Positions 23,684-46,645 of a DNA stretch of 64,000 nucleotides are shown here, piece after piece (position 1 is the stretch's first letter; each line of letters starts with the position of its first letter). The translations under genes and the position numbers were made by a program. The notes beneath the pieces are model-generated. The model was not told the DNA's origin. It saw only the letters and a list, made by a program, of their open reading frames with translations, and made no database searches. The stretch comes from Candidatus Methanoxibalbensis ujae (GTDB lineage: Archaea > Halobacteriota > Syntropharchaeia > Alkanophagales > Methanospirareceae), in contig JAOQIN010000003.1 in assembly GCA_026134085.1 (NCBI GenBank), forward strand, positions 1 through 64,000. The letters are read 5' to 3'.

Positions 23684-23777
23684 GGATAACGAAAAGGGAG
23701 GTGCGTCGCATTGAGTTGTTCAGTTAGGTGAGTGCGAAAGCACAGAGCAAACGAAGTTGGCGAGAGTCGGGCGGAGG
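23684..23777. repeat. attC-like site S0 (distal boundary, degenerate core)
   Basis: GGATAAC (AAC 23688) ... GTTAGGTG (GTT 23723), then arm GTGCGAAAGCAC..GAGAGTCG..GGAGG resembling the S10 arm. Confidence 0.6.
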
Positions 23778-23839
23778 TATTCCATATTTGGGAATGAAGA
23801 CTTTACTTTCCATGTTATTTCTTTACTTTCCATGTCATT

Positions 23840-24333
23840 TTTTGCAAATTTCATATTTTGTAATATCCCAGAACCGGTATCCATTCTTTAATATTTTTTG
23901 TCCATTAATCGGTTTGATACGCTTCTTGAATAATAGACCATCTCTCCGCAGAGGTCAATAGAGTTTTTGCTCAACTTTATGAATTTCTTATTTATTCAAC
24001 GACAATTTTTCACCAAGTAGATTCGCTTTGAGGATAACTACAAAAGCTTCAAAACCGATGTTCCTGTATGTCAATATCTCCAAATACTGTTCCATCAAAA
24101 CTGATTGAGATTTTCTATCTCCTCTTTAAAATCCTTTAGTTTTTCCATGTAGTTTTTCGCTGGATGATTGGTATATCGCTTCTGATTGAGCAAGCAATAA
24201 TTAATATAAGTCATAGTCCTTTTCCCATAGTTATTATATTAAGAAATACCTCAAAACATTTGGAATTAATCGCCTTATAGCCTGCAAATAAATCTTCCTT
24301 ACCACCGCTCAACGACACAACAACTTTTGACAT
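23840..24333 (-). pseudogene. Decayed PP-loop ATPase (diphthine-ammonia ligase/MJ0570-like)
   Basis: MSKVVVSLSGGK start; fragments VFGDIDIQEHR and IDLCGE in shifted frames. Confidence 0.6.
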
Positions 24334-24371
24334 CTCCCTCTTTTCCTTTTCATTCCTATCATATTAACTAT

Positions 24372-24507
24372 CCTCCAACGATTACACCGTTATGAGGATA
24401 AAAGAAGTTGCCGAAGGTGATTGAAATCTTTGATTTCCCTTTTATCTGCTGTATGCTGTTATATGACCCGAGGGGCAAGGTTGCGAAGCAACCGAAGAGT
24501 GCCCGCC
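24372..24507. repeat. attC-like site S1 (TAAC of the core apparently deleted)
   Basis: GATAAAAGAAG...CTTTTATCTGC stem, GTTATATGA at 24458, arm GGTTGCGAAGCAACC..GAGTGCCCGCC; near-copy of S5. Confidence 0.75.
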
Positions 24508-24545
24508 GTCGCTTATGTAGTACCTCGTCATTTTTATTCGCCAAA

Positions 24546-24872
24546 TCATAGGTTTGAAAGAATCTTTCTCATCATTTCCTTTAGTTCTGGAACTTTATTT
24601 TTCACTATGTCCCATATAACCTCTAAGTCCACACCAAAATATGCATGAATAAGAATATCCCTCAGACCAGCTATTTTTCTCCATTCTACTTCTGGATAAT
24701 CTTTCTTGATATCATCAGGTAGATTTTTTACAGCCTCTCCTATTATTTCAAGATTTCTTATCACACCATCTTGAATTAATTCATTGTTTGAAAAATCCTC
24801 GAAATTCATATTCTCTGTATATCTCTCAATTTTACCTATCGCTTCAAGTACTCAAACTTTATACTCCCGCAT
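24546..24872 (-). pseudogene. HepT/DUF86 HEPN ribonuclease toxin with an early in-frame stop
   Basis: MREYKV* then VLEAIGKIERY..; IIGEAVK and RDILIHAYFGVD (RX4H). Confidence 0.8.
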
Positions 24873-25159
24873 ATTTCACACTCCTTAATATATGAGGTTT
24901 CAAATCTGGCTTTATAGATTCCAGAATTACAAGATCAACTTTACCAGTTGAATAAGTCTTCCAAGAAGAATTTTAGTTCCATATAGTTGTCAAAAGTTTT
25001 CTTTCCTTTTTCAAATTCTACTATTATGTCTATATCGCTTCCTTTTTTCTGTTCACTTCTAACATAGGAACCAAATATACCTATCCTCCTGACTCCAAAT
25101 TTCTTGATTTTGTCTTTGCTTTCTTCAATTTTCTTTAATATTTTATCGGCATTTGGCAT
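24859..25159 (-). pseudogene. MntA-type minimal nucleotidyltransferase antitoxin, frameshifted near 24945
   Basis: FGSYVR..SDID; the expected KVDLVILESIKP tail continues in another frame. Confidence 0.8.
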
Positions 25160-25178
25160 CTTTACCTTCCTCCTTTAA

Positions 25179-25231
25179 GGCGTTGCATTTCACTTAACGC
25201 CCAGCAGGTATGCGAAGTGCCACCGCCTATC
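25179..25231. repeat. attC-like site S2 (internally deleted)
   Basis: CACTTAAC (AAC 25196), GCAGGTATGCGAAGTGCC as in S6, then a jump to the CCGCC arm. Confidence 0.65.
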
Positions 25232-25239
25232 ATCATCCT

Positions 25240-25576
25240 TAAGTTATGTCTATGCGAGATATAAGCTTGGTGGTGGCTTTTAATGAAGCGAAGCGCATAC
25301 CCGAGTAATAATATAATACAAATAGCATATTTTCCCGCGAAAGTCTGGTTGTGAATATCATACCACAATCTATCATAAAATGTTTTTAATTGTCCTGTTA
25401 TTTCTCTGTTATAAGTAGGTGAACCTATTACAAGTCCATTTATTTCCAAGAGAAATAAACTCTGTTTCAGCCCCAATACTTTCTGCGCCTTCCAGAACAT
25501 TTCTAATCAACTTAGCGGTGTTCCCATTTTGGTGTGGGCTTCCACAAAGACCAATTATTTTTGTCACATCACTCAT
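25240..25576 (-). pseudogene. Flavodoxin / NAD(P)H-dependent FMN reductase-family remnant
   Basis: GLCGSPHQNGNT..LEGAE, then a frameshift to IGSPTY..GQLKTFYDR. Confidence 0.7.
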
Positions 25577-25615: not shown

Positions 25616-25706
25616 GATAGGAGGCGAAATGTCATATAACAAGGCGAAGTTTCGCTTTGCGAAATTTGGATGAACGTAAGCGAGTTGCATACCGTTAGGC
25701 GTCGTC
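25616..25706. repeat. attC-like site S3
   Basis: CATATAAC (AAC 25638), GAAGTTTCGCTTTGCGAAATTTGG, GTTAGGC (GTT 25694). Confidence 0.75.
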
Positions 25707-25709
25707 GTA

Positions 25710-26135: not shown

Positions 26136-26140
26136 CCTTA

Positions 26141-26185
26141 TCGAAAGCACGAACCGCATACGCACCTGTTAGATGAAGTGCTGCC
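26141..26185. repeat. attC-like half site S4
   Basis: CCGCATACGCACCTGTT identical to S10; GTTAGATGAAGTGCTGC complementary to GCGGCATTTCATCT at 26816-26829. Confidence 0.7.
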
Positions 26186-27710: not shown

Positions 27711-28807
27711 TTATCTCTTCTCATTGTACTTCACTTCTGTAACCTCAAATTTATACCAAGTAAAATCCCTTTCAAGCTTCCATGTCACAGAAAGATTTAC
27801 TGGAATTCTAATTCCTTCGAATTCTCCATAATCGTTCGCTTTAATAACCCATCTTTCCAGAGTTGAACATTCTTTACGATAGTAGTAGCGTTCTGCTTCA
27901 AAACTCGCAAAGTCTCCATTCTCATCAAATTTGAATGTGCCTGAGGCTGTTACTCCTTCATAGCTCATGGTTGCCTTTGCTGTTGTGGAATCTACCTCTT
28001 CCCATTTGATGTAATCGCTTAACGCTGCTGATGGGCACCATATAATCTCACCCAGATACCTGAGCAAAGCTCCCTGATCTATCTCTTTTCCTTTAGCATC
28101 AACAACCGGGATAAGAGAAAAGAGTTTGATGAGCATGTGTCCTTCTCCATTTTCATACTTGTCCCTTCCAGAAAAATGCAAAAATGAGGATTTTACGTCT
28201 GCTTTCCATATGAAGCCTGGAGGATTCGTGGAGATGTACTGTTCAGCTTCAACTTTCATCCAGTCGCCTTCAGGTTTGATTCTCATCTCACCTTTCTGTT
28301 TTAGATGAACCGTTTGGATGATCTCTTTTCCAGAAATATTCGAACGTTTAAGCCATCTTTGCACCACAGGTGGAAGCTCATTAATCATTTCTTCAGTCAC
28401 AACCCTTTTCTCTATTTCTTCTGGAAAGAATGAGCTAAGTTCATCGTTTACCATTCTTTCAAAGCTCCAGCTTCCGTATGAAAAAATGCATACGATGAGT
28501 ATGATGACATTCACAACGGTTCCAAACTTCGCATCTTTCCAGTAAATGAAAATCAGGATTTGAGAAATAACGATTGCAATGACTGCAATCATCCACCACC
28601 AGTCCTTCCTATGCAAATAAGCTATTGCAGAAGCTATGAAAAGCGAACATGCGCCCAACCAGAGTACCCCTGCAATTTTGGATAAAACTCCCGGCAAAGA
28701 AATGAATACTCTTAGCCTTACTTCAGCCAGATTCCATTCCTTCACAAATCCAAGCAGATGGATCAGTCCGTGAAGGAATATGACACACAAAATACTATTC
28801 TATTCAT
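27711..28807 (-). CDS. DUF6544/DUF6920-family membrane-anchored protein (possible frameshift between ATG 28807 and the ORF start at 28790)
   Basis: HGLIHLLGF, W.DAKFGT.N, LPPVVQRWL, RYLGEIIW.P and GIRIP motifs. Confidence 0.75.
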
Positions 28808-28899
28808 GGTTTATCTCCCCTCTCACTCTCATTATGAATATTCCATCCCAGATATTGCTTCAAATTCCAGATGTTAAATATGTGGGAATCCATAGTGCC

Positions 28900-29770
28900 T
28901 TCAATTAGTTGTATTTACCCATATGGAATAACCTATTATCATATATACATGCAGATATAGTTGTCTCTATTGTGTGCGCTATTAAAACATCGGGTGGAAA
29001 ATACCTTGAGCCATTATTATTTGAAAGCCATGATAACTGAATATTAACATCAAACTTATCATCGCCTTTATTCTGCTACCTTCCATCATTAATATAATTG
29101 GTATTGAAAAAACAATAATAACCCTCTGAAGGGTAAAAATAATGGCATTTCTCTTATTGTCCTTATTATTTGAGTCATGAAATTCAATTGTTCCGTAGTT
29201 CCGGAGTAGAATAACCTGACAGCTTCAAACTGCCAAGCAATGTAATATCCAAAAAGCAGATATATTATTATGTAAAGTAACGAAAAAAATGGAGCTTTTT
29301 CACCCAACTCTTCATTTCAATCCTTTCCAAAATCTCTTTTATGCTTATCTTCTTTGTAGCCTTTATCCAAAAATAATAACTGTAAGTGGAACGACTGTTA
29401 TAGTTGTTATTACACCCCTTATCATGATATTTAAAATCTCTATATTCGTCATAAAAGTAAAGGCATCTCTGAAGTAGAATGTCTCTATTTGTGCCATAAA
29501 ATATTCTATTCCCCAGAAACCCAAACCTGAAGCCAGAATTAATTTGATTCCACTCCATTCCGACAATTTAACATTTACACTTAAGGCAATTGCTCCAAGC
29601 AAAGAGACTAGTAACATCAGTCCAAACATTTTATTTTGCATATCTTCCGTTATCCTTGATACAATCTCTGGAGAAACAGGTATTATCAAAGTTGGAATTA
29701 CAATACTTGCGGCAAAAATTAAAGTGAGTATTATTATTTTTAATATTAACATATTAACTAAATTTTTCAT
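28900..29770 (-). pseudogene. Multi-pass membrane protein split by frameshifts
   Basis: Consecutive hydrophobic ORF pieces 29363-29797 and 29089-29307, plus a tail (AHTIET). Confidence 0.55.
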
Positions 29771-29783
29771 TTCACCTATGCCA

Positions 29784-30596
29784 CTAATAACCTCCAAAGA
29801 ATCTTATAAAATCAATAAACCAATGAAATGTAATAGCGGTCTCCAAATCTCTTTTATATTGTAAAAATGCCATTGGTAATCCAAATAAAAAACCGGTGGA
29901 TATCAGCATAAATAGAGCACCTGGTATATTATGTATCCATAATTCTGGAAAGTGAATTAAACTGTGAGGCACTACACCAAAGAAAAAACTAATTATAACT
30001 GAGTATTTCCTCTCAATCTTCCCTTCTAATAAATAAAATATAAAATTCATAATAAAGAATCTAAATATAATTTCTTCAGAGATTCCTGGTGCTAAAGCTA
30101 AGAAACCCGCACTAAATATATTCATATATTCAGCCTCACCTAAAGTTAGTCTAAAATAAATGTAATTTATTAACGCAAAAGGTAATGCCACCATAACCCC
30201 TATTAAAAATGACTTAAATATTGATTTATACTTCTGTAATATGAGTAATGACTTATTTCTATTTTCACCTGATAATAAACTGCCTCCAAGAAATGCAATA
30301 AATGTCACGATAAAGTTAATCGCTGCTGTGAATGTATCTATCCATTGAATAAAACTTAGATAGCTTATAGCAGCAAGTAATATTCCAAATGTGATATGCC
30401 TTAAATTTAAATCTCTGAGTTTCTTATAAATTGCAAATAGAGCAAGTAAAAGTATATAAAGTTCTGTCCATGTCCAAGCCCTATACGTGAACTTAAAATC
30501 CTGCTCACTCATTGTATAAACAATAGAAAATATGTATAGCAAGATGAATACAGCCAACAAAAGTATGATATCTAGAAAATGCTTCCTAAAAGTCAT
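29784..30596 (-). CDS. CPBP family intramembrane glutamic endopeptidase
   Basis: PGISEEIIFR, HSLIH and ITFHWFID motifs. Confidence 0.82.
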   Translation of the reverse strand: MTFRKHFLDIILLLAVFILLYIFSIVYTMSEQDFKFTYRAWTWTELYILLLALFAIYKKLRDLNLRHITFGILLAAISYLSFIQWIDTFTAAINFIVTFIAFLGGSLLSGENRNKSLLILQKYKSIFKSFLIGVMVALPFALINYIYFRLTLGEAEYMNIFSAGFLALAPGISEEIIFRFFIMNFIFYLLEGKIERKYSVIISFFFGVVPHSLIHFPELWIHNIPGALFMLISTGFLFGLPMAFLQYKRDLETAITFHWFIDFIRFFGGY

Positions 30597-31252
30597 TAAA
30601 TCACCTCTTTCTTATTACACCAAAATAATCGCAATAAAGAAAGTAACACATTGCAAGTATTGTAGTTGTGATTATTTTTGATCTCATTTTCCGATGTATA
30701 AATTGTAAAATGTTGTTCTGGTAAAAAATTGGATTCCCTTTCCAGCAAATAACCTGCCTCTTCCATCTCTTGAACGATAGTTTCCTTATGAACGTAGTGT
30801 TCAAATAATCCACGGAAAGTGAAAGTTTTACCTTTTTCATACTCAATGATAGCAATTCTCTCATCAGGTTTTAAAAATCGTTTTAGACCCTTAAAATACT
30901 CTACCCGATTTGGTATGTGATGGGTGACATTGCGCATGAATATCGAATCCAAGCTTTTTTCAGATAAATTTAATTTATCTCTAGATACAAGCGTTGATAT
31001 AACATTATTCAATCCTTCTTCTTTGGCACTATTCTTGACATACTCTAAAAATTCTGGTTTTGTATCAACTGCATAAACTCTTCTCTCTTCTCTAACTATA
31101 TCGGCAAATCGCAGAGAAAAATAACCCCCTCCTGAACCAATATCTGCAATACTTTGACCGGGCTTTAATGCAATAGCTTCTATAATCTGGTCCGGTTTGT
31201 TTTTGGAGTCAGAAGCCTTTTTATTGAAAATCTTTGCTTGAAAGTCTGCCAT
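30596..31252 (-). CDS. Class I SAM-dependent methyltransferase (C-terminus probably aberrant)
   Basis: IADIGSGGGYFS, VYAVD and NVTHH motifs. Confidence 0.85.
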   Translation of the reverse strand: MADFQAKIFNKKASDSKNKPDQIIEAIALKPGQSIADIGSGGGYFSLRFADIVREERRVYAVDTKPEFLEYVKNSAKEEGLNNVISTLVSRDKLNLSEKSLDSIFMRNVTHHIPNRVEYFKGLKRFLKPDERIAIIEYEKGKTFTFRGLFEHYVHKETIVQEMEEAGYLLERESNFLPEQHFTIYTSENEIKNNHNYNTCNVLLSLLRLFWCNKKEVI

Positions 31253-31302: not shown

Positions 31303-31453
31303 GGCGTCCCGAAGCCGATTGCGTATAACGTTTTGCAGATAAAAGAAGTCCCGACTTGTCGGGATTTGGAGAAATCTTTGATTTCCCTTTTATCCGCTGT
31401 TATATGACCCGAGGGGCAAGGTTGCTTCGCAACCAAAGAGTGCAAAGCCCGCC
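31303..31453. repeat. attC-like site S5
   Basis: GTATAAC (31327) GTTTT GCAGATAAAAG-AAGTCCCGAC..GTCGGGATTTGG..CTTTTATCCGC T GTTATAT (31399), plus outer arm. Confidence 0.85.
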
Positions 31454-31461
31454 AAGATTCT

Positions 31462-32928
31462 TTACTCATATTTATCCCTCAATTTACTCTTACTCATTTG
31501 ATCAGGCTTTCTGAAGTTCGCAGTGTAATTCTTTTTCCTGCCGCAGCTCTCAATGAATTCAAAGCCCTGCTTTTCAGCCAACAAACGGACAACCGGCAAA
31601 GGTAAAAAGTCAGGGTCTCCCGGCTGTTCTGTGATGGATAATAAACCGGAGGGTTTTAAGACTCTGTATATAGCACCCAAACACCTTTCCTTATCTGAAA
31701 CTTCACCTAAAACTGCAACGAGAAAGACAACATCAAATTCATTCTCATCAAACGGAAGATCAACAGCATCTCCCTGAGTAAATCCAACATTATGCAGACC
31801 CGCCGACTGAATCTTACGACGTGCTTTTTCAAGCATCTCTTTTTGCAAGTCAAACAATTCCAGATGTCCCTGCGGTATGCGCCGTGCAACTTCAACACTG
31901 AAGTAGCCGGGACCAGGACCTATCTCAAGCACATTGAAATCCTCTTTGAGATGAAGCCTATCAGCCAGCTTCTGGGGAGAAAGAATAAGTCTCCGCAAAG
32001 GAAAATCCAACCAGAAGGATATTTGAGAGGGATAAGTCCCCTTGCCGAAAAAACGCCTTAGGATCCCCTTCTCCGCTGATCTCATTTGGCAGCCTCTTAT
32101 ACGGGTCAAAGTTTTCGGTCCAAAAATGAGCGTTATTACCACTGATAAAATAATAATCAAAATCAGACTGTATAGCCTGCCCTGCTCTGTCAATGGAATG
32201 AGATTTCCACTGAAATTGCACATGAAGTGAAAAAGTATAGCGGAGAGAGTGCTGCGGTTGGTGTTGTTGTAAATCCAGGTGAATAGAATTGAAAGAAAGA
32301 TTGGGCTGAAAATAAACGTCCAGAAATCCAATGTGCCAAATTTTAACACATCGTGCTGCCACTGTCCTTTCATGAAGAAAAGGGGAAGATGCCACAATGC
32401 CCATACCACGCCCAAGAGAAGGCTTGAGAAAAGGGCATTATACCTTGCCTGCAAGCCATCCAGAGCATAACCACGCCAGCCCAGCTCTTCTGGTAATGGT
32501 CCATAGAGCAGGATAAAAACGGCAAAAGGAAGAATTCTCCATGGTTCAAACAGCAGATTTCTGGCTGTTTCAAACTCAGGCCACGGTGAGCCTGCAAGAA
32601 CGCTTAACAGAAGGGCAAGAGTGTTCAGCACAGGAAATGTGAGCCAGATGACCAGATGCCATCTTTTACCAATCCGCCTGATGTCAAATACACGCTGCCA
32701 GTAATCTCTCCATTCTTCTTTATCGTGGGTGCGAGAGATTAAGATGATTTCCGCAATTGCAGGGCCGAACAACCCAAGGGCACCGAGAACTATTGCTGGG
32801 AATGTAAAGACATTCCAGCCCAGCAATATAACCCATATCCAGAAGAACCATGAAATGCCAAGGGCCAGAGTAAAAAACCGCCATGGATTTGCAGCTTTTG
32901 AGTTTTTTGTGCTCATTATTTTATCCAT
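31462..32928 (-). CDS. Fusion of a CPBP protease (N-terminal) and a class I SAM methyltransferase (C-terminal)
   Basis: PEELGWRGY, WALWHLP and ILFHFM, then MRSAEK..LEIGPGPGYFS. Confidence 0.8.
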   Translation of the reverse strand: MDKIMSTKNSKAANPWRFFTLALGISWFFWIWVILLGWNVFTFPAIVLGALGLFGPAIAEIILISRTHDKEEWRDYWQRVFDIRRIGKRWHLVIWLTFPVLNTLALLLSVLAGSPWPEFETARNLLFEPWRILPFAVFILLYGPLPEELGWRGYALDGLQARYNALFSSLLLGVVWALWHLPLFFMKGQWQHDVLKFGTLDFWTFIFSPIFLSILFTWIYNNTNRSTLSAILFHFMCNFSGNLIPLTEQGRLYSLILIIILSVVITLIFGPKTLTRIRGCQMRSAEKGILRRFFGKGTYPSQISFWLDFPLRRLILSPQKLADRLHLKEDFNVLEIGPGPGYFSVEVARRIPQGHLELFDLQKEMLEKARRKIQSAGLHNVGFTQGDAVDLPFDENEFDVVFLVAVLGEVSDKERCLGAIYRVLKPSGLLSITEQPGDPDFLPLPVVRLLAEKQGFEFIESCGRKKNYTANFRKPDQMSKSKLRDKYE

Positions 32929-32953
32929 GCTTTTTACTCCTCTCCTGTTGATC

Positions 32954-33643
32954 TCATAAACTATACCTTAAAACGATTGTAACAAAAATCAAAACAGGGG
33001 ACGAAGTTGCTGGAATTCCACGGTACCACGGTTTGTTCTTAAAAGATAGCATACCAATAATGTTCGGAATCTGCCCAACAATGATAGCACTGATAGCCAT
33101 CCAAATAGCATGTATTCCCCAAATTTTTAGAGTAGCCCCCACAATAAGGGCAAAAACAAACATATCTCCAATGCCAGTTATTTGATATAATCCTGAGAAA
33201 CCTGGAATGGGCATGCAAATCGATAGCCTTTTTGCAATTGTTTTATTCTCAATTAGTTTTCGGTTAGGAGTCCCCTTCCCAAACCGTGTAAAACTGATGA
33301 AATCTATTATAGCGATGGGTATCAGAAAACTTATTAACTTCTCCTGGCTTGAAAGCCAATAAGCAGCCAATATTCCTAATAAAATTCCACCAAGCATATA
33401 TGATACATTGTGTAGATATAAAACATTATCTCGAAAAGGTTGCCGCCATGTCCAAATGGCCAAGACTATCACTATTGCGAGAGCAATTATAATTGATAGG
33501 ATAGATAAATGCGAAATCAAAAATGCAAGCAGGATGTTGGTTAAGCTCAACATGATTATATAAAAAATTATCCGGAAATAAGCAAATTTATTTCTATTTT
33601 TCTCTTTTGTAGTGAGATTTTTATTCTTCATTTTCTTCACCAT
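32954..33643 (-). CDS. Membrane protein resembling GxGD aspartyl intramembrane proteases (presenilin/SPP-like)
   Basis: Transmembrane Asp (IIDFISF), GIGD, C-terminal IPA. Confidence 0.6.
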   Translation of the reverse strand: MVKKMKNKNLTTKEKNRNKFAYFRIIFYIIMLSLTNILLAFLISHLSILSIIIALAIVIVLAIWTWRQPFRDNVLYLHNVSYMLGGILLGILAAYWLSSQEKLISFLIPIAIIDFISFTRFGKGTPNRKLIENKTIAKRLSICMPIPGFSGLYQITGIGDMFVFALIVGATLKIWGIHAIWMAISAIIVGQIPNIIGMLSFKNKPWYRGIPATSSPVLIFVTIVLRYSL

Positions 33644-33684: not shown

Positions 33685-33826
33685 TGGGGTTCGGAATTTA
33701 ATATAACAATTTGCAGGTATGCGAAGTGCCGCAGGCATTTGAGTGGGCAAAGCGAACCCGCCTGTTATACGATCCGAACGAAGTGAGGACGAGGAGCGAA
33801 GCGACGAAGCGTTCCGCCCAAAGCTC
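33685..33826. repeat. attC-like site S6
   Basis: ATATAAC (33705), GAAGTGCCGCAGGCATTTG, CCTGTTATACGA (33764), arm with CGAAG hairpins ending CCGCCC. Confidence 0.85.
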
Positions 33827-36886: not shown

Positions 36887-37612
36887 CTATGTATATCTAC
36901 TTGTTTCATTTGTTACCTCATCCATTTTATCCAGATCATTCTGTTGAAATTGTTTCATAAACTGTTCCATCGGGAAGGGCTTTCCATGCCCCGGAGTTTT
37001 TATTCTCAACTTTTTCAGTTTCTTGACACTTTCATTTGCTACTGTTAAGTCGTCCATAATAGAGCTGAGAACTGGTTTGTCTTTATTTTCAAGCAGATCT
37101 CCGCAAAAAAGATCGCCATCTGCTGTCAGTATTCCTATTGAACCTTTTGAGTTCCCGGGAATATGAAGAACTTTTGCATTGAATCCGTATTCAGTGAGAT
37201 CATATCCCTCATCAATACATAAATCCGGTTTGAATCGCTCCTTTTTGCCAAATCTGAACAGGATGCGAGCCATCATTCCAAGGAGAACATTGCCTTTTCT
37301 CCTGTTCCAGAACATGTCTCCACGTTCGCTCATTCCCGAATCACCATGATGCATCGCTATCCCTGCACCGAACTTTTCACGGAGATGAGCTGCATTGCCT
37401 GTGTGGTCAAAATCTCCATGGGTTAAAACGATAAGTTTGAGATTGCCGGGTTTACACCCCGCTTTTTCAAGTTCTTTTTCAAGTTCGGCGCGCTTATTTG
37501 AACATGCTGTGTCGATCAGGATATAGCCGGTGTCGGTTTCTATGAGGTAGCAATTTACGGTACCTAACTTATAAGGCAGTGGTAAAGTAATGGTCTTGAG
37601 CTTTGTAGACAT
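36887..37612 (-). CDS. MBL-fold metallo-hydrolase (possibly degenerate)
   Basis: THGDFDHTG, PGNS (His replaced by Asn), GD and PGHG motifs. Confidence 0.82.
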   Translation of the reverse strand: MSTKLKTITLPLPYKLGTVNCYLIETDTGYILIDTACSNKRAELEKELEKAGCKPGNLKLIVLTHGDFDHTGNAAHLREKFGAGIAMHHGDSGMSERGDMFWNRRKGNVLLGMMARILFRFGKKERFKPDLCIDEGYDLTEYGFNAKVLHIPGNSKGSIGILTADGDLFCGDLLENKDKPVLSSIMDDLTVANESVKKLKKLRIKTPGHGKPFPMEQFMKQFQQNDLDKMDEVTNETSRYT

Positions 37613-38032: not shown

Positions 38033-38067
38033 TCATCCCTTCTTCATGGCTATGCCTCTTTATATGC

Positions 38068-38160
38068 TTTCGCTTAACGTTTCGCGGATAAAAGACGAAG
38101 GCTTGGAAATCTTTGATTTCACTTTTATCCGCTGTTGGGCGTCCCAATGGGCAAAATTTT
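38068..38160. repeat. attC-like site S8
   Basis: GCTTAAC (38076) GTTTC GCGGATAAAAG...CTTTTATCCGC T GTTGGGC (38134). Confidence 0.85.
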
Positions 38161-38411: not shown

Positions 38412-39104
38412 TTAGATGTCTTGGAGGGGTCGAATGGTTGTACCGGTTCCGCCTCCTGGGTCTAGGTCGAGGATGATAAGGAGTCCCCTATACCCCTCTT
38501 TCTTCACGACTATTTCGTAGACTTCTCCAAGCTTAAACATGTGACTTAATTCTCCATTGCTATCGGTGTAACCTACGAATGTGCCGTTTATGTAGACTTC
38601 AGCTTTCTCGACGGGACGTCCATTGGAGGTAATGCGCATAACTTTGAACTGCTTATCATCGTACAACCTTTCAAGCTTCATGCTAAAAGACAGATATCCT
38701 TTAAGTCTTACGTTGACGAACGTTGCTTGGGGGAAGAAACCTTCCTTTTCGGCGTAAATTTTGTACCATCCTTCCTCCTCGAAAACATGGGTGATTTCTC
38801 CGCTTGAGTTCGTCTCGCCTATGTACATTCCCTTCGTCGATAAGTTGTGGTCCTTCGCGACGTAAACCTTGGCTCCCTTGACGGGGTTGCCTCTGAAATC
38901 TCTGACAATTATCTTGACTCTCTCGCCGATTGTTGGGTTCTCGGGTATGAGGTCTATCTTCAGCTTGTTAGCTTCTGGCTTCTCTGGCTGCTTTGTCTCC
39001 ATTACTTCAACTTCAATAATTTTCATGTTTAACGCTAAAGTGCTAACTATCAGCATGACTATAGCTACGGCTGTAGCTAGGAAGATGGCTCCCCTTCTAT
39101 GCAT
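38412..39104 (-). CDS. Secreted protein with two carboxypeptidase-regulatory/PEGA-like beta domains
   Basis: Signal peptide; repeated G.PV..A.VY..G.T...GE...Y.I...KEG. Confidence 0.65.
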   Translation of the reverse strand: MHRRGAIFLATAVAIVMLIVSTLALNMKIIEVEVMETKQPEKPEANKLKIDLIPENPTIGERVKIIVRDFRGNPVKGAKVYVAKDHNLSTKGMYIGETNSSGEITHVFEEEGWYKIYAEKEGFFPQATFVNVRLKGYLSFSMKLERLYDDKQFKVMRITSNGRPVEKAEVYINGTFVGYTDSNGELSHMFKLGEVYEIVVKKEGYRGLLIILDLDPGGGTGTTIRPLQDI

Positions 39105-39156
39105 CTGTATCCTTCGATAAATTTAATGTGTTCACGTATTTAAATATTTCATTCTT

Positions 39157-39786
39157 TCATTCTCGCAATATCTTCTGATCAGGCAGTCTTCGCATTTGGG
39201 ATTCCGCGACCTGCAAATTCGCCTTCCAAATTCTATCAGTATTGGGTTTTCGTTCTTTGTTTTGGTGGTATCTCAGATTCGAGTTTCGCTCTCAAACTCT
39301 CATAATTGTCTCTTTCACCGGCTATTCCCAATCTTTTCATTATTCTGAAAATGTGAACATCAATGGGTAGTACCTGTTCTCCCTTAATCGCCATTAAAAA
39401 GACATCTGCGGTTTTCGGGCCAATTCCCTTTATTGAGGTCAGTTTTTTCTTTACCTCGTCATAAGGAAGTTTCAATATTTTTATCTTTCCATCGTATTTT
39501 TCAACTAAATCTTCGGCGATATTTTTGATTCTTCTGGCTCTGATCCTATATAAACCCGCCGGTTTAATAACTTTCTCAATCTCTCTCATTTGCCTTTGCC
39601 ACATCTTCAATGCCATTAAACCTCTCACTAAATCTTTCAGTGGCAGTTCTCACATTTTTCCAATACATTCGCTGGGAAAGGATTATACTAACCAATGTTT
39701 CGAACGGAGTATATCTTTCCCACCACTCGTTGATTTTGTATTTCTTAGGATCTCCTCTATCTTTTGAAGTTTTGTTCCCATACTCA
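39157..39786 (-). pseudogene. nth: Endonuclease III (Nth) family, frameshifted
   Basis: PFETLVSIILSQ, then GIGPKTA and PIDVH, then GRRICRSRNPKCEDC, spread over broken frames. Confidence 0.8.
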
Positions 39787-40291
39787 TCACTTGGCAGCAC
39801 TCGCCTTACAGATGTATCTCATCTTACATCGTGCGCATCCCTTTTTTCTTCCGAACTGATTTAGCACCATTATCGCCAGGAAGCCAGTTAGACTTATTCC
39901 ACCAGATACTGAAAATTCCCCGTGCAGAAACATCGCAACGGGAATGGCGATGATTGGAATAATTGTCAATAGACCTCAGGTTAAACAAGCCGGTTTCACT
40001 CCCACATCATAATTACCGGATTTCTGAATAAACACGAACTCGATTTACCCCAGCCGGTGCCGCACAACTTGCCGTAGTAATAGCAATGCGTGCAAAGATG
40101 TTCCCTTAATGAATCCGAGCATTAAAAAAGCAAATAACATATAAATGAACGGACAATCCCTCAAGTTTCAATGCAGACATACTGTGAGCTGCGAATCCAA
40201 ACCAGAGCAATAGCAAAACATTTGTTAAAACCGCCGTTGCCTTTAATTCTCCAATCCATTTTCGTATAGTTTTTGTTTTTCCATATTTCAC
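39787..40291 (-). pseudogene. Cys-rich membrane protein remnant
   Basis: CTHCYYYGKLCGTGWG and CARCKMRYIC in different frames. Confidence 0.5.
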
Positions 40292-41217
40292 ACTTTCTTT
40301 CTATTTTCCACATTATAAGCACATATTAAATAATAAATTACCCATCCCCTGAACTCGCCCCACCTTTCCGTAAATTTTCTAACGGTATCTCCTGATTGAA
40401 GTTTTCCGTCAAAGTAGAAGTGTGAAACTGCTTTTCTGGCTCCGAGGTCATCGGGAACGCAGAGATCCATTCTTCCTAATGTCGTTATCAGTATTAACTC
40501 GGCAGTCCACCTTCCGATTCCCTTAAATTTCATCAACTCTTCAATTGCTCCCTCATTACCCAATCTTTTAATTTTCTCCAAATCGTATCCATCGGCAACT
40601 TTCAGTGCGAGTTCTTTGATGTATCTGGCTTTCTGACGGGATAACTTACACTTCCTCAATTCGTTCTCATCGGCATTTGCCAACACTTGAGGTGAAGGAA
40701 AATCGTAATATGGTTCGCCATCGATTTCTATTTTCTCTCCGAATCTTTTGACCAATTCCCCAGTCATGACATAGGCAACCCGTAAAGAAATCTGCTGCTG
40801 GATTATCACTCTGATCGCTCCCTCAAATATACTCGCCCCGATTCCCGGCGGTCTCAGACCGTAAAGTTCTTTCTTTATCTTACGAAGTATCTCATCTTGT
40901 TCCATAAAATCATACAATGCTCTGAGGTCATCTCTCAATCTAAAAATGTCCGCGATTTTATCCGACAGATATCTCTTCTCTTTCGTATTGAGTTTGGAAA
41001 ATGCGTTAACCCTCAACTTTGGCTTTTCCACAGTGCCAACAGAAGTAACCTCCATTGGAACTAATCTATCTCCAATTTTAAAACTCCGTCTCCAAATGCC
41101 ATCTTTATAAATTTCTGGCTGTGGCTCTTTCGATGAAGAATAAAATTTCCACTGCAGATCAAAATCATAGGGCGGAGTTGGTAGGAGTTCGAATGAAGTT
41201 TTATCCATGATAATCAC
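40288..41217 (-). CDS. alkA: DNA-3-methyladenine glycosylase II (AlkA family)
   Basis: IIQQQIS, FPSPQ, KGIGRWTAE and DDLG (HhH-GPD) motifs. Confidence 0.9.
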   Translation of the reverse strand: MIIMDKTSFELLPTPPYDFDLQWKFYSSSKEPQPEIYKDGIWRRSFKIGDRLVPMEVTSVGTVEKPKLRVNAFSKLNTKEKRYLSDKIADIFRLRDDLRALYDFMEQDEILRKIKKELYGLRPPGIGASIFEGAIRVIIQQQISLRVAYVMTGELVKRFGEKIEIDGEPYYDFPSPQVLANADENELRKCKLSRQKARYIKELALKVADGYDLEKIKRLGNEGAIEELMKFKGIGRWTAELILITTLGRMDLCVPDDLGARKAVSHFYFDGKLQSGDTVRKFTERWGEFRGWVIYYLICAYNVENRKKV

Positions 41218-41287: not shown

Positions 41288-41426
41288 GAAATTTCGCCTA
41301 ACGTTTTGCGGACATACGAAGTTCTGCTTTGCGAAATTTGGGCGTAGCCGAAGGCGAAGCCACATATCCGCCTGTTGTCCGAGTGCGTTAGCGCCGAAGC
41401 GAAGCGGAGAGTTCACGGAGCCCCGC
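41288..41426. repeat. attC-like site S9
   Basis: GCCTAAC (41300), GAAGTT..AAATTTGG, CCTGTTGTCCGA (41374), arm GAGTTCACGGAGCCCCGC. Confidence 0.88.
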
Positions 41427-41866: not shown

Positions 41867-42027
41867 GCGGGGCGGAGTGAATTTCGGACAACGTCTGGGG
41901 CGTATGCGGAGTTGCGGAGCGAAGCGACGCAATTTGGGTGTAGCGACCATAAGGGGGCAAAACCGCATACGCACCTGTTGTCCGAGTGCGAAAGCACCGA
42001 GCAATCCGAAGGCGAGAGTCCCGCCGC
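41867..42027. repeat. attC-like site S10
   Basis: TCGGACAAC (41890), GCGTATGCG..CGCATACGC stem, CTGTTGTCCGA (41977), plus outer arm. Confidence 0.88.
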
Positions 42028-42429
42028 TCATATTTTTTCTTCCTCCATCCATATTTTAAGATAGCTTTTTAACGTTTGAACGAAATTTTTGGCAGTTTCT
42101 AACATATCTCTTGCCTCTCCTTCAGTGACGATAAAACCTATGCCGTAATCCCCTATCAATCTTTTATCATAGGCATCGTTAAGCGTTTTCCTCAAACCTC
42201 TATCAAAAATTCCTGTTTTTATAAAGTGTTCTCCAAATAAACTTATCCAAATAAACCTATCACTCCTTTATGAGAAGAAGCACTCAAGTTCTTGGTAAGA
42301 AGTGCCGCTTCTGCCATGAAAAACATCGCATAATAGTTGAAACACAGGAATCGTAATCTCCAATATTAAGGGTTTGTTCTGCTGTTTTTAGAAATTTCCT
42401 TTTTCTATGAAATCCTTTATCTCCTTCAT
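42028..42429 (-). pseudogene. HEPN-domain toxin remnant
   Basis: YYAMF..AEAAL..SSHKGVI and AYDKRLIGDY in broken frames. Confidence 0.75.
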
Positions 42430-42746
42430 ATCCTTATCCCCTCTTTCCTCACATTTATTACAAATGGATAATTATAGTTTTCAAAGAAGGTCTTAGGAAG
42501 AGCAATAACCGAAACAAGTTCTCCCTTCTCAAGTAATATGTCAAACAGAAGGTCACTCAAACTTCTCCTCACCTCAAAGGGATCAATTGAATCATCAATG
42601 AGCACAAGTAAATCTATGTCTGAATCTTTTGTCGCTTCGCCTCTCGCATGAGAACCATAAAGAATAATCTTTTTAATCTTATCTCTATATCTTTCTATCA
42701 GATGACATTTCACTTGATTTACCAGTTGAGTTATTCTCTTATCCAT
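42426..42746 (-). CDS. Minimal nucleotidyltransferase (MNT) antitoxin
   Basis: LYGSHARG..SDIDLL; EGIRI C-terminus. Confidence 0.88.
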   Translation of the reverse strand: MDKRITQLVNQVKCHLIERYRDKIKKIILYGSHARGEATKDSDIDLLVLIDDSIDPFEVRRSLSDLLFDILLEKGELVSVIALPKTFFENYNYPFVINVRKEGIRI

Positions 42747-42763: not shown

Positions 42764-42900
42764 CGGGGTTCGGGATTTCGGACAACGTTCTGGTATGTGA
42801 AGTTTTGCCTTGCGAAATTTGCACGAGCGTTAGCGAGCCACCTCCTGTTAGCAGACTTGAAGGGCAAGGTGCGAAGCATTGCAGAGTGACAAAGCCCGCC
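42764..42900. repeat. attC-like site S11
   Basis: TCGGACAAC (42784), GAAGTTTTGC..GCGAAATTTG, CCTGTTAGCAG (42847), arm TGCGAAGCA..GAGTG..CCCGCC. Confidence 0.82.
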
Positions 42901-43388: not shown

Positions 43389-43874
43389 CTCTTTTACCCC
43401 CTGTTTGAATGTTGTTTTATGATTGCATATAAACTTACTCCTTCTCAAGGCGGGCCTGGGCATTTCACTGGGGATATGTGAAGTTTCCCGTAGGCAAATC
43501 TGGATGAACTTTTCACCGCGCCATCTCCCAGCATGAAACATAAATTTACCGAAGGCTGATATACCTCCACCAAAAGAGTTTGTTCCGGCATAGAGCTCCA
43601 TCATAACGGTATAGTGAAAGATAACCAGGGGTGAATGATCGCACTCTGTAGTGTCCCACCATGAGACCCAGCACAAATGGATTGTAAAGTGAGGTCTCAG
43701 TCGAATACCATAAGCGAGGGCAGCTCCTTCATAATGCCTTCTGGCAGGAAAAAAAGCCGAAAGCGTGGGCAAGAGCTGGGAATGTAAAGAAAAACATGAA
43801 AGCATACCCTGTTCTTACCCAAAGACTTTCGTGGCCTGAGTCTTTTATGCTTCATTTTTCAGTGCCCCCTACTA

Positions 43875-44013
43875 TCGGCTGTTTCATCTAACATATCGCA
43901 AATATGCGAAGTTTGGCGTAAGCCAAATTTGGCAATCTTTGATTGCGAAACCACATATTTGCTGTTATGTCCCCCGATAGGGTAAATTGCGAAGCAATTT
44001 GAGTTCCGCCGCC
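43875..44013. repeat. attC-like site S12
   Basis: ATCTAAC (43890) ATATC GCAAATATG..CATATTTGC T GTTATGTC (43964), arm AATTGCGAAGCAATT-GAGTTCCGCCGCC. Confidence 0.88.
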
Positions 44014-44021: not shown

Positions 44022-44698
44022 TTATAATTCTACTGTGGCAATTATTGGTAAATGATCGGACAGTCTTGGCTTTTGATTAAAATTTCGTTCTCATCACCAA
44101 CCTTGATTTCCTCAACTTTGACATCTTTCGGGATAAAAAGATAATCCAATTGATATGGTTTCTTGTTCGCAGGAGAAATAAAAGTAAAAGCTTTTGGGAT
44201 GAATTTAAGAGAGATTATAACCTATTTGATAGTTCTTTTTTCTGCTAGTATTCCCCAATCTTTATATTTACATCGAAACTTTTCATCCATATTGAAATCT
44301 CCGCCAATAATGATCGTTTGCACTCTATTCATTATTCCGAATATAGCTTAACATACTAAAAACTTGGAGAACTCATTTTCATCAAGTCCAATATAATTGT
44401 AAACATAAATACTATTCTTTTCTCAGCTAATTCCATTTTGGCAGAAACATAAAAATCTACAAGCACATCAATTTCTGAATTATTGGAAATTATGTTTTCT
44501 TCTTTTACCTGCATTATATCCAGATTTTTCTTAATCAATACAGCATTCATTTCACCACGGATAATATGGTATTTTTTCTTATCGCATAAGCATATAAACT
44601 AAATAATCCCACCTCAAAATCTAGTTTATTAAAATAGTAAAATTTTTTCTTGTATATGCAGCTCTGTTTATGTTCCATGTAACGATTTTCAGCTTCAT
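44022..44698 (-). pseudogene. Endonuclease/exonuclease/phosphatase (EEP) family remnant
   Basis: MKLKIVTWNI, IIGGDFN, YQLDYLF and SDHLP in shifted frames. Confidence 0.8.
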
Positions 44699-44721
44699 TT
44701 TCAATCCCCCTCTATTTGTGA

Positions 44722-44835
44722 GGCGGCGGAATTAGACATAACGTCCCCGGTGTATCTGAGTATCTGAAGTCCGCCGAAGGTGGATTTGGGCAGGTGCTGT
44801 AAGGCACGAAGCCAGATACGCTCTGTTAGCGGAAC
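44722..44835. repeat. attC-like site S13
   Basis: GGCGGCGGAATTAGACATAAC (44740), GAAGTCCGCCGAAGGTGGATTTGG, CTGTTAGCG (44825). Confidence 0.85.
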
Positions 44836-44843
44836 TTTTATTT

Positions 44844-45455
44844 TTAAATAAATAAAAAAAGAGTCATTATATTAGCCGACGAGTGTGTTATCCAGCTCGG
44901 AATGATACTGCCATTTCCCACCTTTTCATTTATGTATCCCATTAAATAGCCAATTGTCCCTGTAAGCAATACTATCGCTGTTATTCCAACAATATTTCTA
45001 ATTATCTCCCAGAATAAAACCCCATGCATTAAGCCAAATAATATACTTTGTAAAAGATTTCCATAATTAAATCCCAATAAATTGATGAACCTTTTTCCAA
45101 GAAAACCCCTGAACAAAATTTCTTCCGACATTGCTGTTGCCACCATTGATTTGATTAAAACAATCAGTATCGCATCCACACAAAATCCCATTTGTTTTAC
45201 AGCTCCACCGACTAAACCTTCAGCCCTAAGAGAATCAAGTAATCCAAGTTTCCAATACACCAGCCAAGAACCACCAAAATACAACAGTGCTACAACTATT
45301 GAGATCGGAATAGATTTTCTCTCAGGTTTAATTAGTCCAATATACCTCAAAAAGCCAGTTATCTTCTTATTTTTCACTAGATAAAAAATCAAAGGTATTG
45401 CTGAAAAAATCGCAACTTGGATTAAAGCCGAAATTAAAGTTATTAAAACAATCAT
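44844..45455 (-). CDS. CPBP family intramembrane metalloprotease
   Basis: SEEILFRG, FGLMH and WITHSSAN motifs. Confidence 0.88.
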   Translation of the reverse strand: MIVLITLISALIQVAIFSAIPLIFYLVKNKKITGFLRYIGLIKPERKSIPISIVVALLYFGGSWLVYWKLGLLDSLRAEGLVGGAVKQMGFCVDAILIVLIKSMVATAMSEEILFRGFLGKRFINLLGFNYGNLLQSILFGLMHGVLFWEIIRNIVGITAIVLLTGTIGYLMGYINEKVGNGSIIPSWITHSSANIMTLFLFI

Positions 45456-45504
45456 TTTTATTACCTCCTTTATTACCTCCTTATTTTATATTTACAATCC
45501 GAGG

Positions 45505-45600
45505 ATGTCTCCAGCATATACGACGTTGCGACGAAGTGTCCTGAAGGGCAAGGCGTAGCCGTGGCGTATATGCTGTGTTATCTGATGTGCCGTTCTCTGT
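45505..45600. repeat. attC-like site S14 (AAC lost)
   Basis: AGCATATACG..CGTATATGCT stem, GTTATCTG at 45577; paralogous to S7. Confidence 0.7.
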
Positions 45601-45628
45601 GTCGCCAAAAACCGAATCGTAAACCTCA

Positions 45629-46414
45629 TCAAGATATACCTCCAATCCGATTTGCTTTTTTGGAGATGACTCGCCCTGCTCGCTTAAAGAACACGCTCAA
45701 CAATGCTCCTGAAACGATCAGCGCAATCCAATCGATCACGATGACAGCAACCTCATATCTGTATTCGAGGTCGCTTCCGTAGAGCAGAGCGAGGACGATG
45801 AGCGATCCGACTGCCAGGACAGAACTTGCGCCGAATACAAGCCGTATTATCCACTCAAGCCTCTCACGCCGGCCGAACGCGAGAGCGACAAACAGGAAGG
45901 ACACGCCCATCATCAGGTGGCCGACTTCCTCCAGTGCAATAAAAACCCCGTGCGGATTGTATTGCGAGAGGAGCGAGAGCCCCTCAACCTCGCCCTTCAG
46001 GAGACTGGGCTGCATAACCGCAAGTTGAATGAAGTAGTTTGTGGCGAGCACAGCCGCAGAGATCACGGCAAAGGACAATGCGACTTGGCTGAATACCCGC
46101 CTGTCGGCAGAGGCAGAGGCGTAGTGGTGGATGCAAACAACGAGCACAACAAATAGCAGTGACATCAGGAATGCTGGATACATCCAGAGGTAGTCATTTG
46201 GAACGAATACGGCGGCATCGGTATAGGGATATGTAATACACGAATCCAACATACAGAACGGCCCGGACCGTGGAGGGGCGGTTGTGACGGCGATAACCAG
46301 AGCCACCGCTGCAGCTACTGCTGTTGAGATTGAGGTCCAGAATCCAAGCACACTCTGTCTGGCGGAGTTTGTAGTTTCGGCATCAGTAACCTGATTTGAT
46401 CTTAATTGAGACAT
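45629..46414 (-). CDS. Multi-pass membrane protein of unknown function
   Basis: 261-aa hydrophobic ORF with GGAGG RBS; higher GC than its neighbours. Confidence 0.75.
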   Translation of the reverse strand: MSQLRSNQVTDAETTNSARQSVLGFWTSISTAVAAAVALVIAVTTAPPRSGPFCMLDSCITYPYTDAAVFVPNDYLWMYPAFLMSLLFVVLVVCIHHYASASADRRVFSQVALSFAVISAAVLATNYFIQLAVMQPSLLKGEVEGLSLLSQYNPHGVFIALEEVGHLMMGVSFLFVALAFGRRERLEWIIRLVFGASSVLAVGSLIVLALLYGSDLEYRYEVAVIVIDWIALIVSGALLSVFFKRAGRVISKKANRIGGIS

Positions 46415-46519
46415 TTAATTTTCCTCCTTCGCTGGCTCCACATTCGCTTTGACGTTCGCTTTGTTTGCTCACGGATCTTATTTCTTTTTCGTTTCTACTT
46501 ATCATTTTTGTCTTTCTCG

Positions 46520-46645
46520 GGCAAAGCATTCAGCGTCCTGAGGATATGCTTGAGGCAAATTTGGGCTCTGTAGCCATTCCTGTCAGCAGAGGCCATTCCT
46601 GTCAGCAGAATGGCGAGGCACGAAGTAAGAGTTCAGACGCCGCCG
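46520..46645. repeat. Degenerate attC-like site S15 (proximal boundary)
   Basis: AGC in place of AAC, AAATTTGGG, duplicated GCCATTCCTGTCAGCAGA (GTC for GTT), arm GAGTTC..CGCCGCC. Confidence 0.55.

Follow-up and report, generated by a model that had tools for sequence, protein, structure and literature searches.

A probable integron-type cassette array without a recombinase of its own in Candidatus Methanoxibalbensis ujae

Introduction

Integron recombination is thought to depend on a domain that is specific to the integron integrase IntI, and cassette arrays in which no IntI can be recognised are classed as orphans. In the Vibrio cholerae integrase VchIntIA this domain reads the L-box bulges, and the attI1 site has a direct-repeat layout. 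Two systems that use Xer recombinases are also relevant here: XerA/dif, which resolves chromosome dimers at one site and which, to our knowledge, is not known to build cassette arrays, and the CTX phage, an integrative mobile element exploiting Xer (IMEX), which integrates as folded single-stranded DNA (ssDNA) with exchange of one strand. In the present study we analysed a 64,000-nucleotide (nt) stretch of DNA from Candidatus Methanoxibalbensis ujae (contig JAOQIN010000003.1, positions 1 to 64,000; hereafter the window). A preliminary description, made from the sequence alone, had noted at positions 23,684 to 46,645 an AT-rich island of short, mostly minus-strand genes separated by palindromic sites with AAC and GTT cores. 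It had read this island as an integron-like cassette-capture platform with an atypical family of sites in a methanogen-related or anaerobic methanotrophic (ANME)-related archaeon.

According to the portion of Ghaly et al. 2022 (PMC9668308) available to us, integrons occur in 75 metagenome-assembled genomes (MAGs) of Archaea, mostly as clusters of attC sites lacking an integrase (CALINs) and with at most 12 attCs per contig. Three ANME-1 MAGs have 7, 2 and 2 attCs there, one 'complete integron' is listed, and the archaeal IntIs are said to carry the IntI-specific domain. Since archaeal integrons, including those of ANME-1, have thus already been published, the basic claim of the preliminary description is not new. 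In the accessible part of Cortez et al. 2010 (PMC2958812), dif is described as having an 11-6-11 form and as not adjoining cassette arrays. An Xer-type recombinase running cassette arrays was not found among the matches listed in the literature on archaeal integrons, CALINs, ANME-1 and XerA/dif.

On the evidence given below we consider it likely that the island is a chromosomal integron-type array of about 15 mobile cassettes, integrase-less and partly eroded, for which an XerA-family enzyme of related genomes would be the catalyst.

Results

Seventeen sites of one family

The GC content of the island (24-46 kb) is 0.30-0.47 in 1-kb bins and that of its flanks 0.45-0.53, and the minus strand holds 27 of the 32 open reading frames (ORFs) of at least 70 amino acids (aa) that were kept by greedy calling between 23.5 and 46.5 kb. 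The AT-richness and the nearly uniform strand that had been described are therefore both borne out. A Pfam search of the five plus-strand island ORFs gave no match. The host assignment also agrees with our data: the contig bears archaeal markers to either side of the array, and mcrA is present in the genome, which comprises 1.99 Mb and is 89% complete.

The nine core pairs that had been called intact carry AAC and GTT at exactly the bases given for them, and all seven eroded sites named earlier were found again by model matches, reading by eye and pairwise alignment. Together with one eroded site at 43459, absent from the earlier list, the total comes to 17 (nine intact and eight eroded) where about 16 had been claimed. 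All 17 have one orientation (+ strand) and lie within the island only, and with a GC content of 0.41-0.57 they are richer than the island, as had been noted. When a covariance model of the sites was scanned over the whole 64 kb, on both strands and with filters off, the nine intact sites, all of which were in its training set, scored 46.8-81.9 bits. Four further weak matches (24378, 25184, 43459 and 45492; E 0.11-0.49) were again all on the + strand and in the island, and outside the island the model found nothing at E<1 within the window. A loose regular expression for the sites matched genome-wide and was dropped as uninformative.

The aligned sites share a left flank of ATTTCG, followed by three or four variable bases before AAC. 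The interior then consists of a spacer of 4-5 nt, an arm of about 10 nt, GAAGT, hairpin 1, ATTTGG, a variable hairpin 2, the complementary arm and 1-2 nt before GTT, to the right of which stands a further module of 40-60 nt with a small hairpin. Because RNAalifold recovered hairpin 1 alone from a first alignment of nine sequences, the structure was set by hand and then tested on 31 aligned sites, some of them taken from further contigs of this genome. Pairing was found in 81% of the cells, compared with 38-41% when the partners were slid by 1-3 columns. Compensatory changes occur in eight of the ten pairs of the L stem, and the covariation score of 0.271 (0.145 in shuffles) was reached by none of 500 shuffles. 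At the three core positions 29-31 of the 31 sites have standard pairs, and 26 retain a G.T wobble in hairpin 1. Further out in the R box, beyond AAC/GTT, pairing is missing in 12-17 sites, as would be expected if the two halves come from different cassettes. The L stems have no bulged base, either in the best-folding sites or in the 31-site alignment, and the asymmetry of the site sits in the spacer (4-5 nt vs 1-2 nt).

These sites are one family, and its description as atypical is supported. Inverse AAC/GTT cores bound imperfect palindromes, as in integrons, whereas the extrahelical bases of the L box are absent, and the asymmetric spacer and the conserved two-hairpin centre likewise depart from the canonical description of attC.

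As ssDNA, four of the nine intact sites beat their shuffles in folding (z -4.2 to -5.4). In 25 of the 31 sites the greater stability belongs to the + strand (mean -15.2 vs -13.5 kcal/mol; Wilcoxon p 1e-4), and this wobble-carrying strand is opposite to the genes, which favours a role at the DNA level and disfavours an RNA terminator. This bears on another explanation, namely that the sites are self-spreading repeats, like repetitive extragenic palindromes (REPs) or miniature inverted-repeat transposable elements (MITEs), or are terminator-like, and that the 'cassettes' are ordinary accessory genes between them. The repeats do stand downstream of ORFs, in the position of a terminator, but with the non-coding strand folding better a transcript would carry C.A mismatches, and Rfam at gathering thresholds found only three tRNAs in the window and no family matching the sites.

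Cassette boundaries and orientation

The six bases outside the GTT of one site complement the six outside the AAC of the next at a mean of 4.52 of 6 over 23 adjacent pairs, a value reached in none of 10,000 permutations. The two flanks of the same site match at 3.21 of 6 (39 sites), which is as random (3.22 for all pairs), and perfect matches were seen in 6 of the 23 adjacent pairs against 3 of the 39 own pairs. Complementarity between neighbours is the signature of units that were once closed into circles and inserted at the core. MITE ends, by contrast, match each other, and neither matched terminal inverted repeats belonging to the same site nor insertion independent of gene orientation was observed here: of 30 intervals between sites, 26 have their longest ORF antisense to the site. 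Repeats scattered regardless of gene boundaries, which the preliminary description had named as evidence against itself, are disfavoured by these results.

Sites with similar right flanks also tend to have similar internal arms (Mantel r 0.13-0.20, p<=0.006), whereas for the left flanks there is no such relation (r 0.02-0.04, p>0.2). This contrast would place the usual crossover at the left core, that is, on the coding strand at G|TT at the 3' end of the site, which is the canonical integron geometry. With such modest correlations, it is the weakest of these three tests. A boundary inside R' (G|TT) and a co-oriented layout of ORF and then site are both features of integrons that, on these results, the array appears to share.

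Spread of the sites and sharing of cassettes

The alignment, covariance model and scan that had been proposed as a check gave 43 matches at E<=0.01 in the own genome and matches in 47 of the 61 genomes searched. Sites were found in 33 of the 36 other genomes of the family and in both genomes of the second family in the order; among 11 additional genomes from elsewhere in the class 8 were positive, and among 11 from elsewhere in the phylum, 3. With nhmmer, the own genome yielded 54 copies at E<1e-3, and matches at E<1e-2 lie on 22 contigs. Such dispersal, with some singletons, could be expected of REP- or MITE-like elements, and the mosaic structure of the sites is what gene conversion among repeats would give. 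However, most copies cluster in co-oriented runs (contigs C23, C12, C59, C1, C26, C4 and C7), singletons are often near contig ends, and whole cassettes move between genera, as described below. Self-spreading repeats, already disfavoured, are in our opinion a very improbable explanation.

A comparison of the island with 60 further family genomes brought up individual cassettes in other genera, located on separate contigs and 85-93% identical in nucleotide sequence. Among the recurring units are those with the metallo-beta-lactamase (MBL) hydrolase, the 229-aa ORF and two CAAX proteases, and the unit at 42.8-43.5 kb. The segment 32820-33482 recurs at 92% identity in G027:C30. For 36951-38096, with the MBL hydrolase, the identity is 91% in G081:C207, and G023 and G027 have copies at 82-90%. 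In G011 the position next to a recombinase and an attI-like site, that of the first cassette, is taken by a gene that is 92.6% identical in nucleotide sequence to the CAAX gene at 44844-45455.

We also found a shorter form of the array. In G005:C130 a homologue of 42761-43469 is joined straight to a homologue of the site 45507-45593, and the same joint (43469->45507), which omits 2,037 nt and has TAAC between the two sides, is present on contigs of three runs (X2, X3 and X5) from three studies and three independent metagenomes. Only this joint was counted, with sides of 31-55 nt, three runs and the match in G005:C130. Many further joints and loose ends, with sides of 21-29 nt within repeated sites, were not taken as rearrangements. 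The cassettes are common to other ANME-1 genera and variable between natural populations, and the cassette-level gain or loss whose absence had been set against the preliminary description is seen both in their sharing and in the missing 2,037-nt block.

A XerA-family recombinase beside the arrays of relatives

No match to the integrase domain PF00589 was obtained among the 59 window ORFs searched. With seven recombinases as queries, tblastn found nothing at the proximal array end (46.4-47.6 kb); its sole match in the window, at 48560-48652 (E 0.16), is antisense in an MBL gene and was ignored. Beyond the proximal site at 46530..46645 no attI-like palindromes were found.

The situation is different in the relatives, and the enzyme found there was not anticipated by the preliminary description. 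Intact recombinase genes of about 350 aa lie directly upstream of arrays, and co-oriented with them, in G028, G041, G033, G004, G023, G055 and G011, and the order at these loci is recombinase gene, short non-coding region and same-strand cassettes, with the sites in the opposite orientation. Three of the proteins score 253.3, 254.0 and 244.6 bits with the XerA equivalog model NF040815 (cut-off 220). With the integron-integrase model TIGR02249 the recombinase reaches 237 bits, below the cut-off of 265, which was exceeded in none of the 61 genomes searched. Its best match in both sequence and fold is VchIntIA (159.9 bits; Foldseek E 7e-17), and a full-length fold search returned IntI/XerA only. 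The alignment with VchIntIA falls into two blocks, between which 27 residues stand against 69 in VchIntIA (about 42 fewer), and this 69-residue stretch we take to be the position of the IntI-specific domain. With XerA of Pyrococcus abyssi the protein aligns contiguously, end to end. The neighbour of these arrays is thus a XerA-family recombinase without the IntI-specific domain, and not the adjacent IntI that carries this domain in integrons.

About 70 extra N-terminal residues are conserved in seven of nine aligned recombinases. Modelled alone (predicted local distance difference test, pLDDT, 87), this domain has its best matches in T4 UvsW (Z 7.7) and XPB (Z 6.7 and 6.4), and it compares with the HARP domain of SMARCAL1 at Z 4.6, a root-mean-square deviation of 1.7 A and 23% identity; a sub-threshold Pfam match to HARP (E 0.0038) was also seen. 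UvsW, XPB and HARP domains bind branched DNA. Z values of 4.6-7.7 are 'middling' on the tool's scale, and the predicted likeness may serve as a lead.

Behind the stop codon of the recombinase the relatives carry two or three palindromes of 24-26 bp, of the type with two inverted arms, followed by an ...AG|TTA... junction and a cassette-type 5' flank. The same attI-like layout was found in Altiarchaeota, Thermodesulfobacterium, Nitrospirae, Deferribacteres, Desulfitobacterium and one Methanoperedenaceae genome.

Another tyrosine recombinase conserved in the family has about 192 aa and consists of the catalytic domain without a core-binding domain (for example L135 1302-1880, G027:C25). It was seen as a short-frame match in many of the family genomes searched.

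The same recombinase and sites in other phyla

When species-representative genomes were searched with the G041 protein, 80 loci in many bacterial and archaeal phyla were obtained, at 40-71% identity and with the N-terminal domain included. Seven proteins from other phyla all matched the XerA model best (six at 225-247 bits and one at 216.5), and none of the seven reached the IntI cut-off. In the 80 loci the ANME-derived site model had 46 matches at E<0.1, every one of them on the strand opposite the recombinase; at E<0.01 there were 40 matches in 20 loci, 39 of which were downstream of the recombinase. One complete Desulfitobacterium chromosome has six sites downstream of the same protein. On MAG contigs of Thermodesulfobacterium, Atribacteria and Deferribacteres (L060, L056 and L089) the sites score 60-75 bits, matching ANME-1 levels. 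Such high scores are hints of a recent cross-domain exchange of cassettes or platforms, with mis-binning of the MAGs as an alternative.

Could the enzyme be simply the housekeeping XerA, with dif palindromes behind its gene and the cassettes as passive, IMEX-like hitch-hikers at dif, without any dedicated capture system? The protein exceeds the XerA equivalog cut-off and the palindromes are of the two-inverted-arm type, but several genomes have at least three full-length copies or many fragments (G038, for example, has three genes of 379-414 aa), and the array in the window is far from any such gene. In the near-complete G041 it is the only gene matched by TIGR02249, the other recombinase conserved in the family being the 192-aa catalytic-only protein. 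On the other hand, the Xer-like protein of G040 lacks the extra N-terminal domain and comes from a family with sites in none of its three genomes. Moreover, the same protein with its N-terminal domain is present in bacteria, which have their own XerC/D, including the complete Desulfitobacterium chromosome. We regard a purely housekeeping XerA as improbable.

A further question is whether we are dealing with an ordinary CALIN, whose canonical attCs are served in trans by a true IntI elsewhere, or one since lost, and whose XerA-like neighbours are incidental. On this explanation it would be hard to see why TIGR02249 exceeds its cut-off in none of the 61 genomes, why a XerA-like gene stands immediately upstream of arrays at at least eight loci (including contig C7 of the own genome) with 46 of 46 sites in the 80 loci on the opposite strand, or why a conserved attI-like junction follows the XerA-like stop codon. 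The sites, too, have no L-box bulges and the recombinase no IntI-specific domain, even though the AAC/GTT cores, the preference for the bottom strand and the cassette boundaries all fit attC. In the accessible portion of PMC9668308, IntegronFinder-based screening flagged attC clusters in three ANME-1 MAGs together with one 'IntI', and most of the archaeal integrons published there are CALINs. Taking these points together, we find an ordinary CALIN rather unlikely, and prefer an integron-type array associated with the XerA-family enzyme.

Cassette cargo and neighbourhood of the array

The cargo comprises three CAAX-type proteases, S-adenosylmethionine (SAM) methyltransferases, two HhH-GPD glycosylases and several ORFs without a family, besides the genes listed in Table 1, and it is typical of integron cassettes. 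A family-less ORF of 293 aa at 42924-43805 runs through the partial site 43459-43544, and is probably either two cassette ORFs fused after loss of the core or an artefactual frame. Inside the array, 1.3 kb (26426-27710) contain no ORF of at least 70 aa and have a reversed AT skew (+0.24); this stretch is possibly a decayed cassette.

Just beyond the distal array end, three tandem copies of a motif of about 19 nt (CCTCCCTCATAGAACARGC) lie at 23413-23492, in the gap that separates the RNase P Rpr2 gene from the first small ORF. A NiFe-hydrogenase operon (17079-22810; HypF, maturation protease, large and small subunits) abuts the same end, and its DNA was found in only 17 of the 60 other family genomes. 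In the available text of an ANME-1 preprint (10.1101/2022.07.04.498658) the distribution of the hydrogenase operon is mosaic, even within species, and integrons and recombinases are not mentioned. On the other side of the array, a bacterial-type RuvC resolvase (51829-52335; PF02075, 1.8e-46) is encoded beside the RFC, SRP54 and EMC6-arch genes of this archaeal chromosome. Two tRNA matches, at 13506-13591 (86 nt) and 53919-54008 (90 nt), exceed the 71-position model and are possibly intron-bearing archaeal tRNAs.

Table 1. Recombination sites and cassette genes of the array (positions in the window; z, folding as ssDNA relative to shuffles; bits, covariance-model score)
Feature	Position	Strand	Details
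Truncated site, distal array end	23720..23790	+	GTT and right module only (small hairpin, GAGTC..GGGCGG); read by eye; resembles module right of site at 41977; no model match
Eroded site with right module	24378..24502	+	17.1 bits, E 0.11; 7-nt duplication before GTT; repeat families D3-D6; right part 92% identical to 31396-31443
Eroded site, left arm intact, central insertion	25184..25319	+	nhmmer E 0.0019; 14.4 bits; alignment
Intact site	25626..25708	+	cores AAC 25638-25640, GTT 25694-25696; 53.0 bits
Right half-site (right arm and GTT)	26140..26175	+	matches right arm of site 41878
Intact site with right module	31315..31452	+	cores 31327 / 31399; z -4.62; 68.2 bits
Intact cores, poorly paired arms	33693..33778	+	cores 33705 / 33764; z -0.92; 46.8 bits
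Second-subfamily site	36040..36142	+	homologue of site 45492 (D16, 85% identity); alignment
Intact site	38064..38148	+	cores 38076 / 38134; z -4.15; 47.4 bits
Intact site	41288..41388	+	cores 41300 / 41374; 81.9 bits; right flank complementary 6/6 to left flank of next site
Intact site	41878..41991	+	cores 41890 / 41977; z -5.39; 56.7 bits
Intact cores	42772..42861	+	cores 42784 / 42847; 60.4 bits
Partial site without AAC core	43459..43544	+	nhmmer E 2.8e-5; 16.3 bits; left breakpoint of 2,037-nt block
Intact site	43878..43978	+	cores 43890 / 43964; z -4.76; 69.0 bits
Intact cores	44728..44839	+	cores 44740 / 44825; 60.0 bits
Second-subfamily site	45492..45593	+	16.5 bits; alignment; right breakpoint of 2,037-nt block
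Eroded proximal site, 19-nt tandem (internal) duplication	46530..46645	+	by eye, pairwise alignment
HepT-like RNase and MNT nucleotidyltransferase	24546-24809, 24941-25159	-	PF01934 6.8e-30, PF01909 7.8e-12; PDC-S09 1.1e-28; toxin-antitoxin pair
Multi-gene stretch without intact sites	27711..31252	-	DUF6544 27711-28790, two small ORFs, CAAX-type protease, SAM methyltransferase
CAAX-type protease	29784-30596	-	recurs at 85% nucleotide identity in G005:C15
SAM methyltransferase	30596-31252	-	
CAAX protease-methyltransferase fusion (488 aa) and 229-aa ORF without known family	31462..33643	-	
TaqI-type restriction endonuclease and N6-adenine methyltransferase	33843..35977	-	PF09573 2.2e-59, PF07669/PF12950; REase_II 4.7e-56, MTase_II 1.2e-101
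Metallo-beta-lactamase-fold hydrolase	36887..37612	-	PF00753 1.6e-29
Ig-like/CarboxypepD_reg protein, HhH-GPD fragment, AlkA-like DNA glycosylase (309 aa)	38412..41217	-	one or more cassettes
MNT-type nucleotidyltransferase	42426..42746	-	PF01909 7e-12; PDC-S09 5e-32
CAAX-type protease	44844..45455	-	PF02517 4.4e-13
Proximal cassette ORF, 261 aa, no family	45629..46414	-	

Discussion

The island can be explained by the following mechanism. A cassette would consist of one or a few minus-strand ORFs followed by a recombination site of 70-115 nt. We infer that the + ('bottom') strand folds as a single strand in vivo, forming an R box (nnnnnAAC/GTTnnnnn), an asymmetric spacer, an L stem of about 10 bp and the conserved two-hairpin centre. 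Cassettes would then be inserted as circles by a tyrosine recombinase cutting the AAC core beside the following cassette. In related genomes the enzyme would be the XerA-family recombinase of about 350 aa, which has no IntI-specific insertion and carries a putative HARP/UvsW-N-like domain at its N-terminus, and the present array may have lost, or may never have had, a recombinase and attI of its own.

Several observations weigh against this explanation. The window contains neither a recombinase nor attI, and the 89%-complete genome holds only two dead pieces of recombinase: on contig C7 a degraded 82-aa ORF, directly upstream of three sites, that matches the C-terminal part only, and on contig C33 a copy riddled with stop codons. 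The accessible part of PMC9668308 lists one 'IntI' in an ANME-1 MAG. Five of the nine intact sites fold no better than shuffles (z +0.1 to -1.1). Sites look mosaic, with near-identical bodies and differing flanks on both sides, and in other samples many contigs end precisely at the right-hand GTT (41376), and not at the left core alone, so that the case for a single crossover point is built on correlations of modest size. Nor are the junctions on the window side of the 2,037-nt block clean, for they lack the TAAC of the short form. Finally, the synteny of the flanks is not conserved in the 60 family genomes, which precludes a comparison of the same locus: in G009, the closest genome, the hydrogenase flank and the SRP54/MBL flank are found on separate contigs or at a distance of 63 kb, and the genome studied here is the sole member of its genus in the genome set.

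What remains of the cassette-capture platform that had been claimed? The integron-type array stands, on its flanks, its orientation and the sharing, gain and loss of cassettes; a complete platform does not, with no recombinase or attI present. Given this lack and the two dead fragments in the genome, the array is, in integron terms, CALIN-like. The spacing of the sites (<4 kb) and the lack of an integrase agree with that class when the sites are called by the present covariance model. As a putative archaeal CALIN the array joins a published kind, and its site architecture and the XerA-family recombinase of its relatives set the system apart, possibly as a second integron class. We lean slightly towards the broader idea that there is such a second, cross-domain class, run by a XerA-family recombinase that would read folded attC-like DNA through its N-terminal HARP/UvsW-like domain, this domain replacing the IntI insertion.

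If this were true, many published CALINs would belong to an unrecognised integrase family and would not be orphaned, and the near-identical sites shared by ANME-1 and bacteria from the same hot, anoxic habitats (Thermodesulfobacterium, Atribacteria, Deferribacteres) would mark active gene exchange between domains. Dozens of site copies per genome across an order-level archaeal clade, consistently paired with a Xer-type enzyme, would show that cassette capture arose, or survives, with different hardware. They would also offer a mechanism for the flux of accessory genes, such as those for defence systems, DNA-repair glycosylases and membrane proteases, in uncultured methane-oxidising archaea. 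What the window alone provides is more modest: a long array without an integrase, in part eroded, such as had been reported from ANME-1 before.

How does the system compare with those already described? The CALINs of PMC9668308, as far as its accessible text goes, are similar in having short co-oriented ORFs between folded attC-type sites, mostly no integrase, and a cargo rich in toxin-antitoxin and restriction-modification genes. They differ in size, with at most 12 attCs per contig there and nine intact plus eight eroded sites here. The recombinase beside the present family of sites is without the IntI-specific domain, unlike the archaeal IntIs of that study as they appear in its available portion. 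Our model finds sites in 33 of the 36 other family genomes, as opposed to three ANME-1 MAGs in the seen part of that work, whose total of ANME-1 genomes screened is possibly different.

The superintegron of Vibrio cholerae, with its V. cholerae repeats (VCR) and VchIntIA (PDB 2a3v), is likewise a long chromosomal array with homogeneous, lineage-specific sites of about 100 nt and toxin-antitoxin cassettes. It also shares the inverse R''/R' cores AAC/GTT, the distal half of R' that belongs to the next cassette, and, probably, folding of the bottom strand. Unlike VchIntIA, the recombinase of the relatives is about 42 residues shorter at the IntI-specific domain and carries an additional domain at its N-terminus; its gene points the same way as the cassettes instead of diverging from them, and the sites are without L-stem bulges. 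The attI-like site in the relatives carries palindromes where attI1 has direct repeats. XerA/dif (PDB 4a8e) is similar in its membership of the XerA equivalog, in the end-to-end alignment and in the palindromic two-arm sites, which here stand behind the gene. It differs from the recombinase of the relatives, which has an added N-terminal domain of 70 aa and is present in several copies in some genomes. As to the manner of recombination, the logic of the CTX phage as an IMEX is the same as that which we infer for the present sites.

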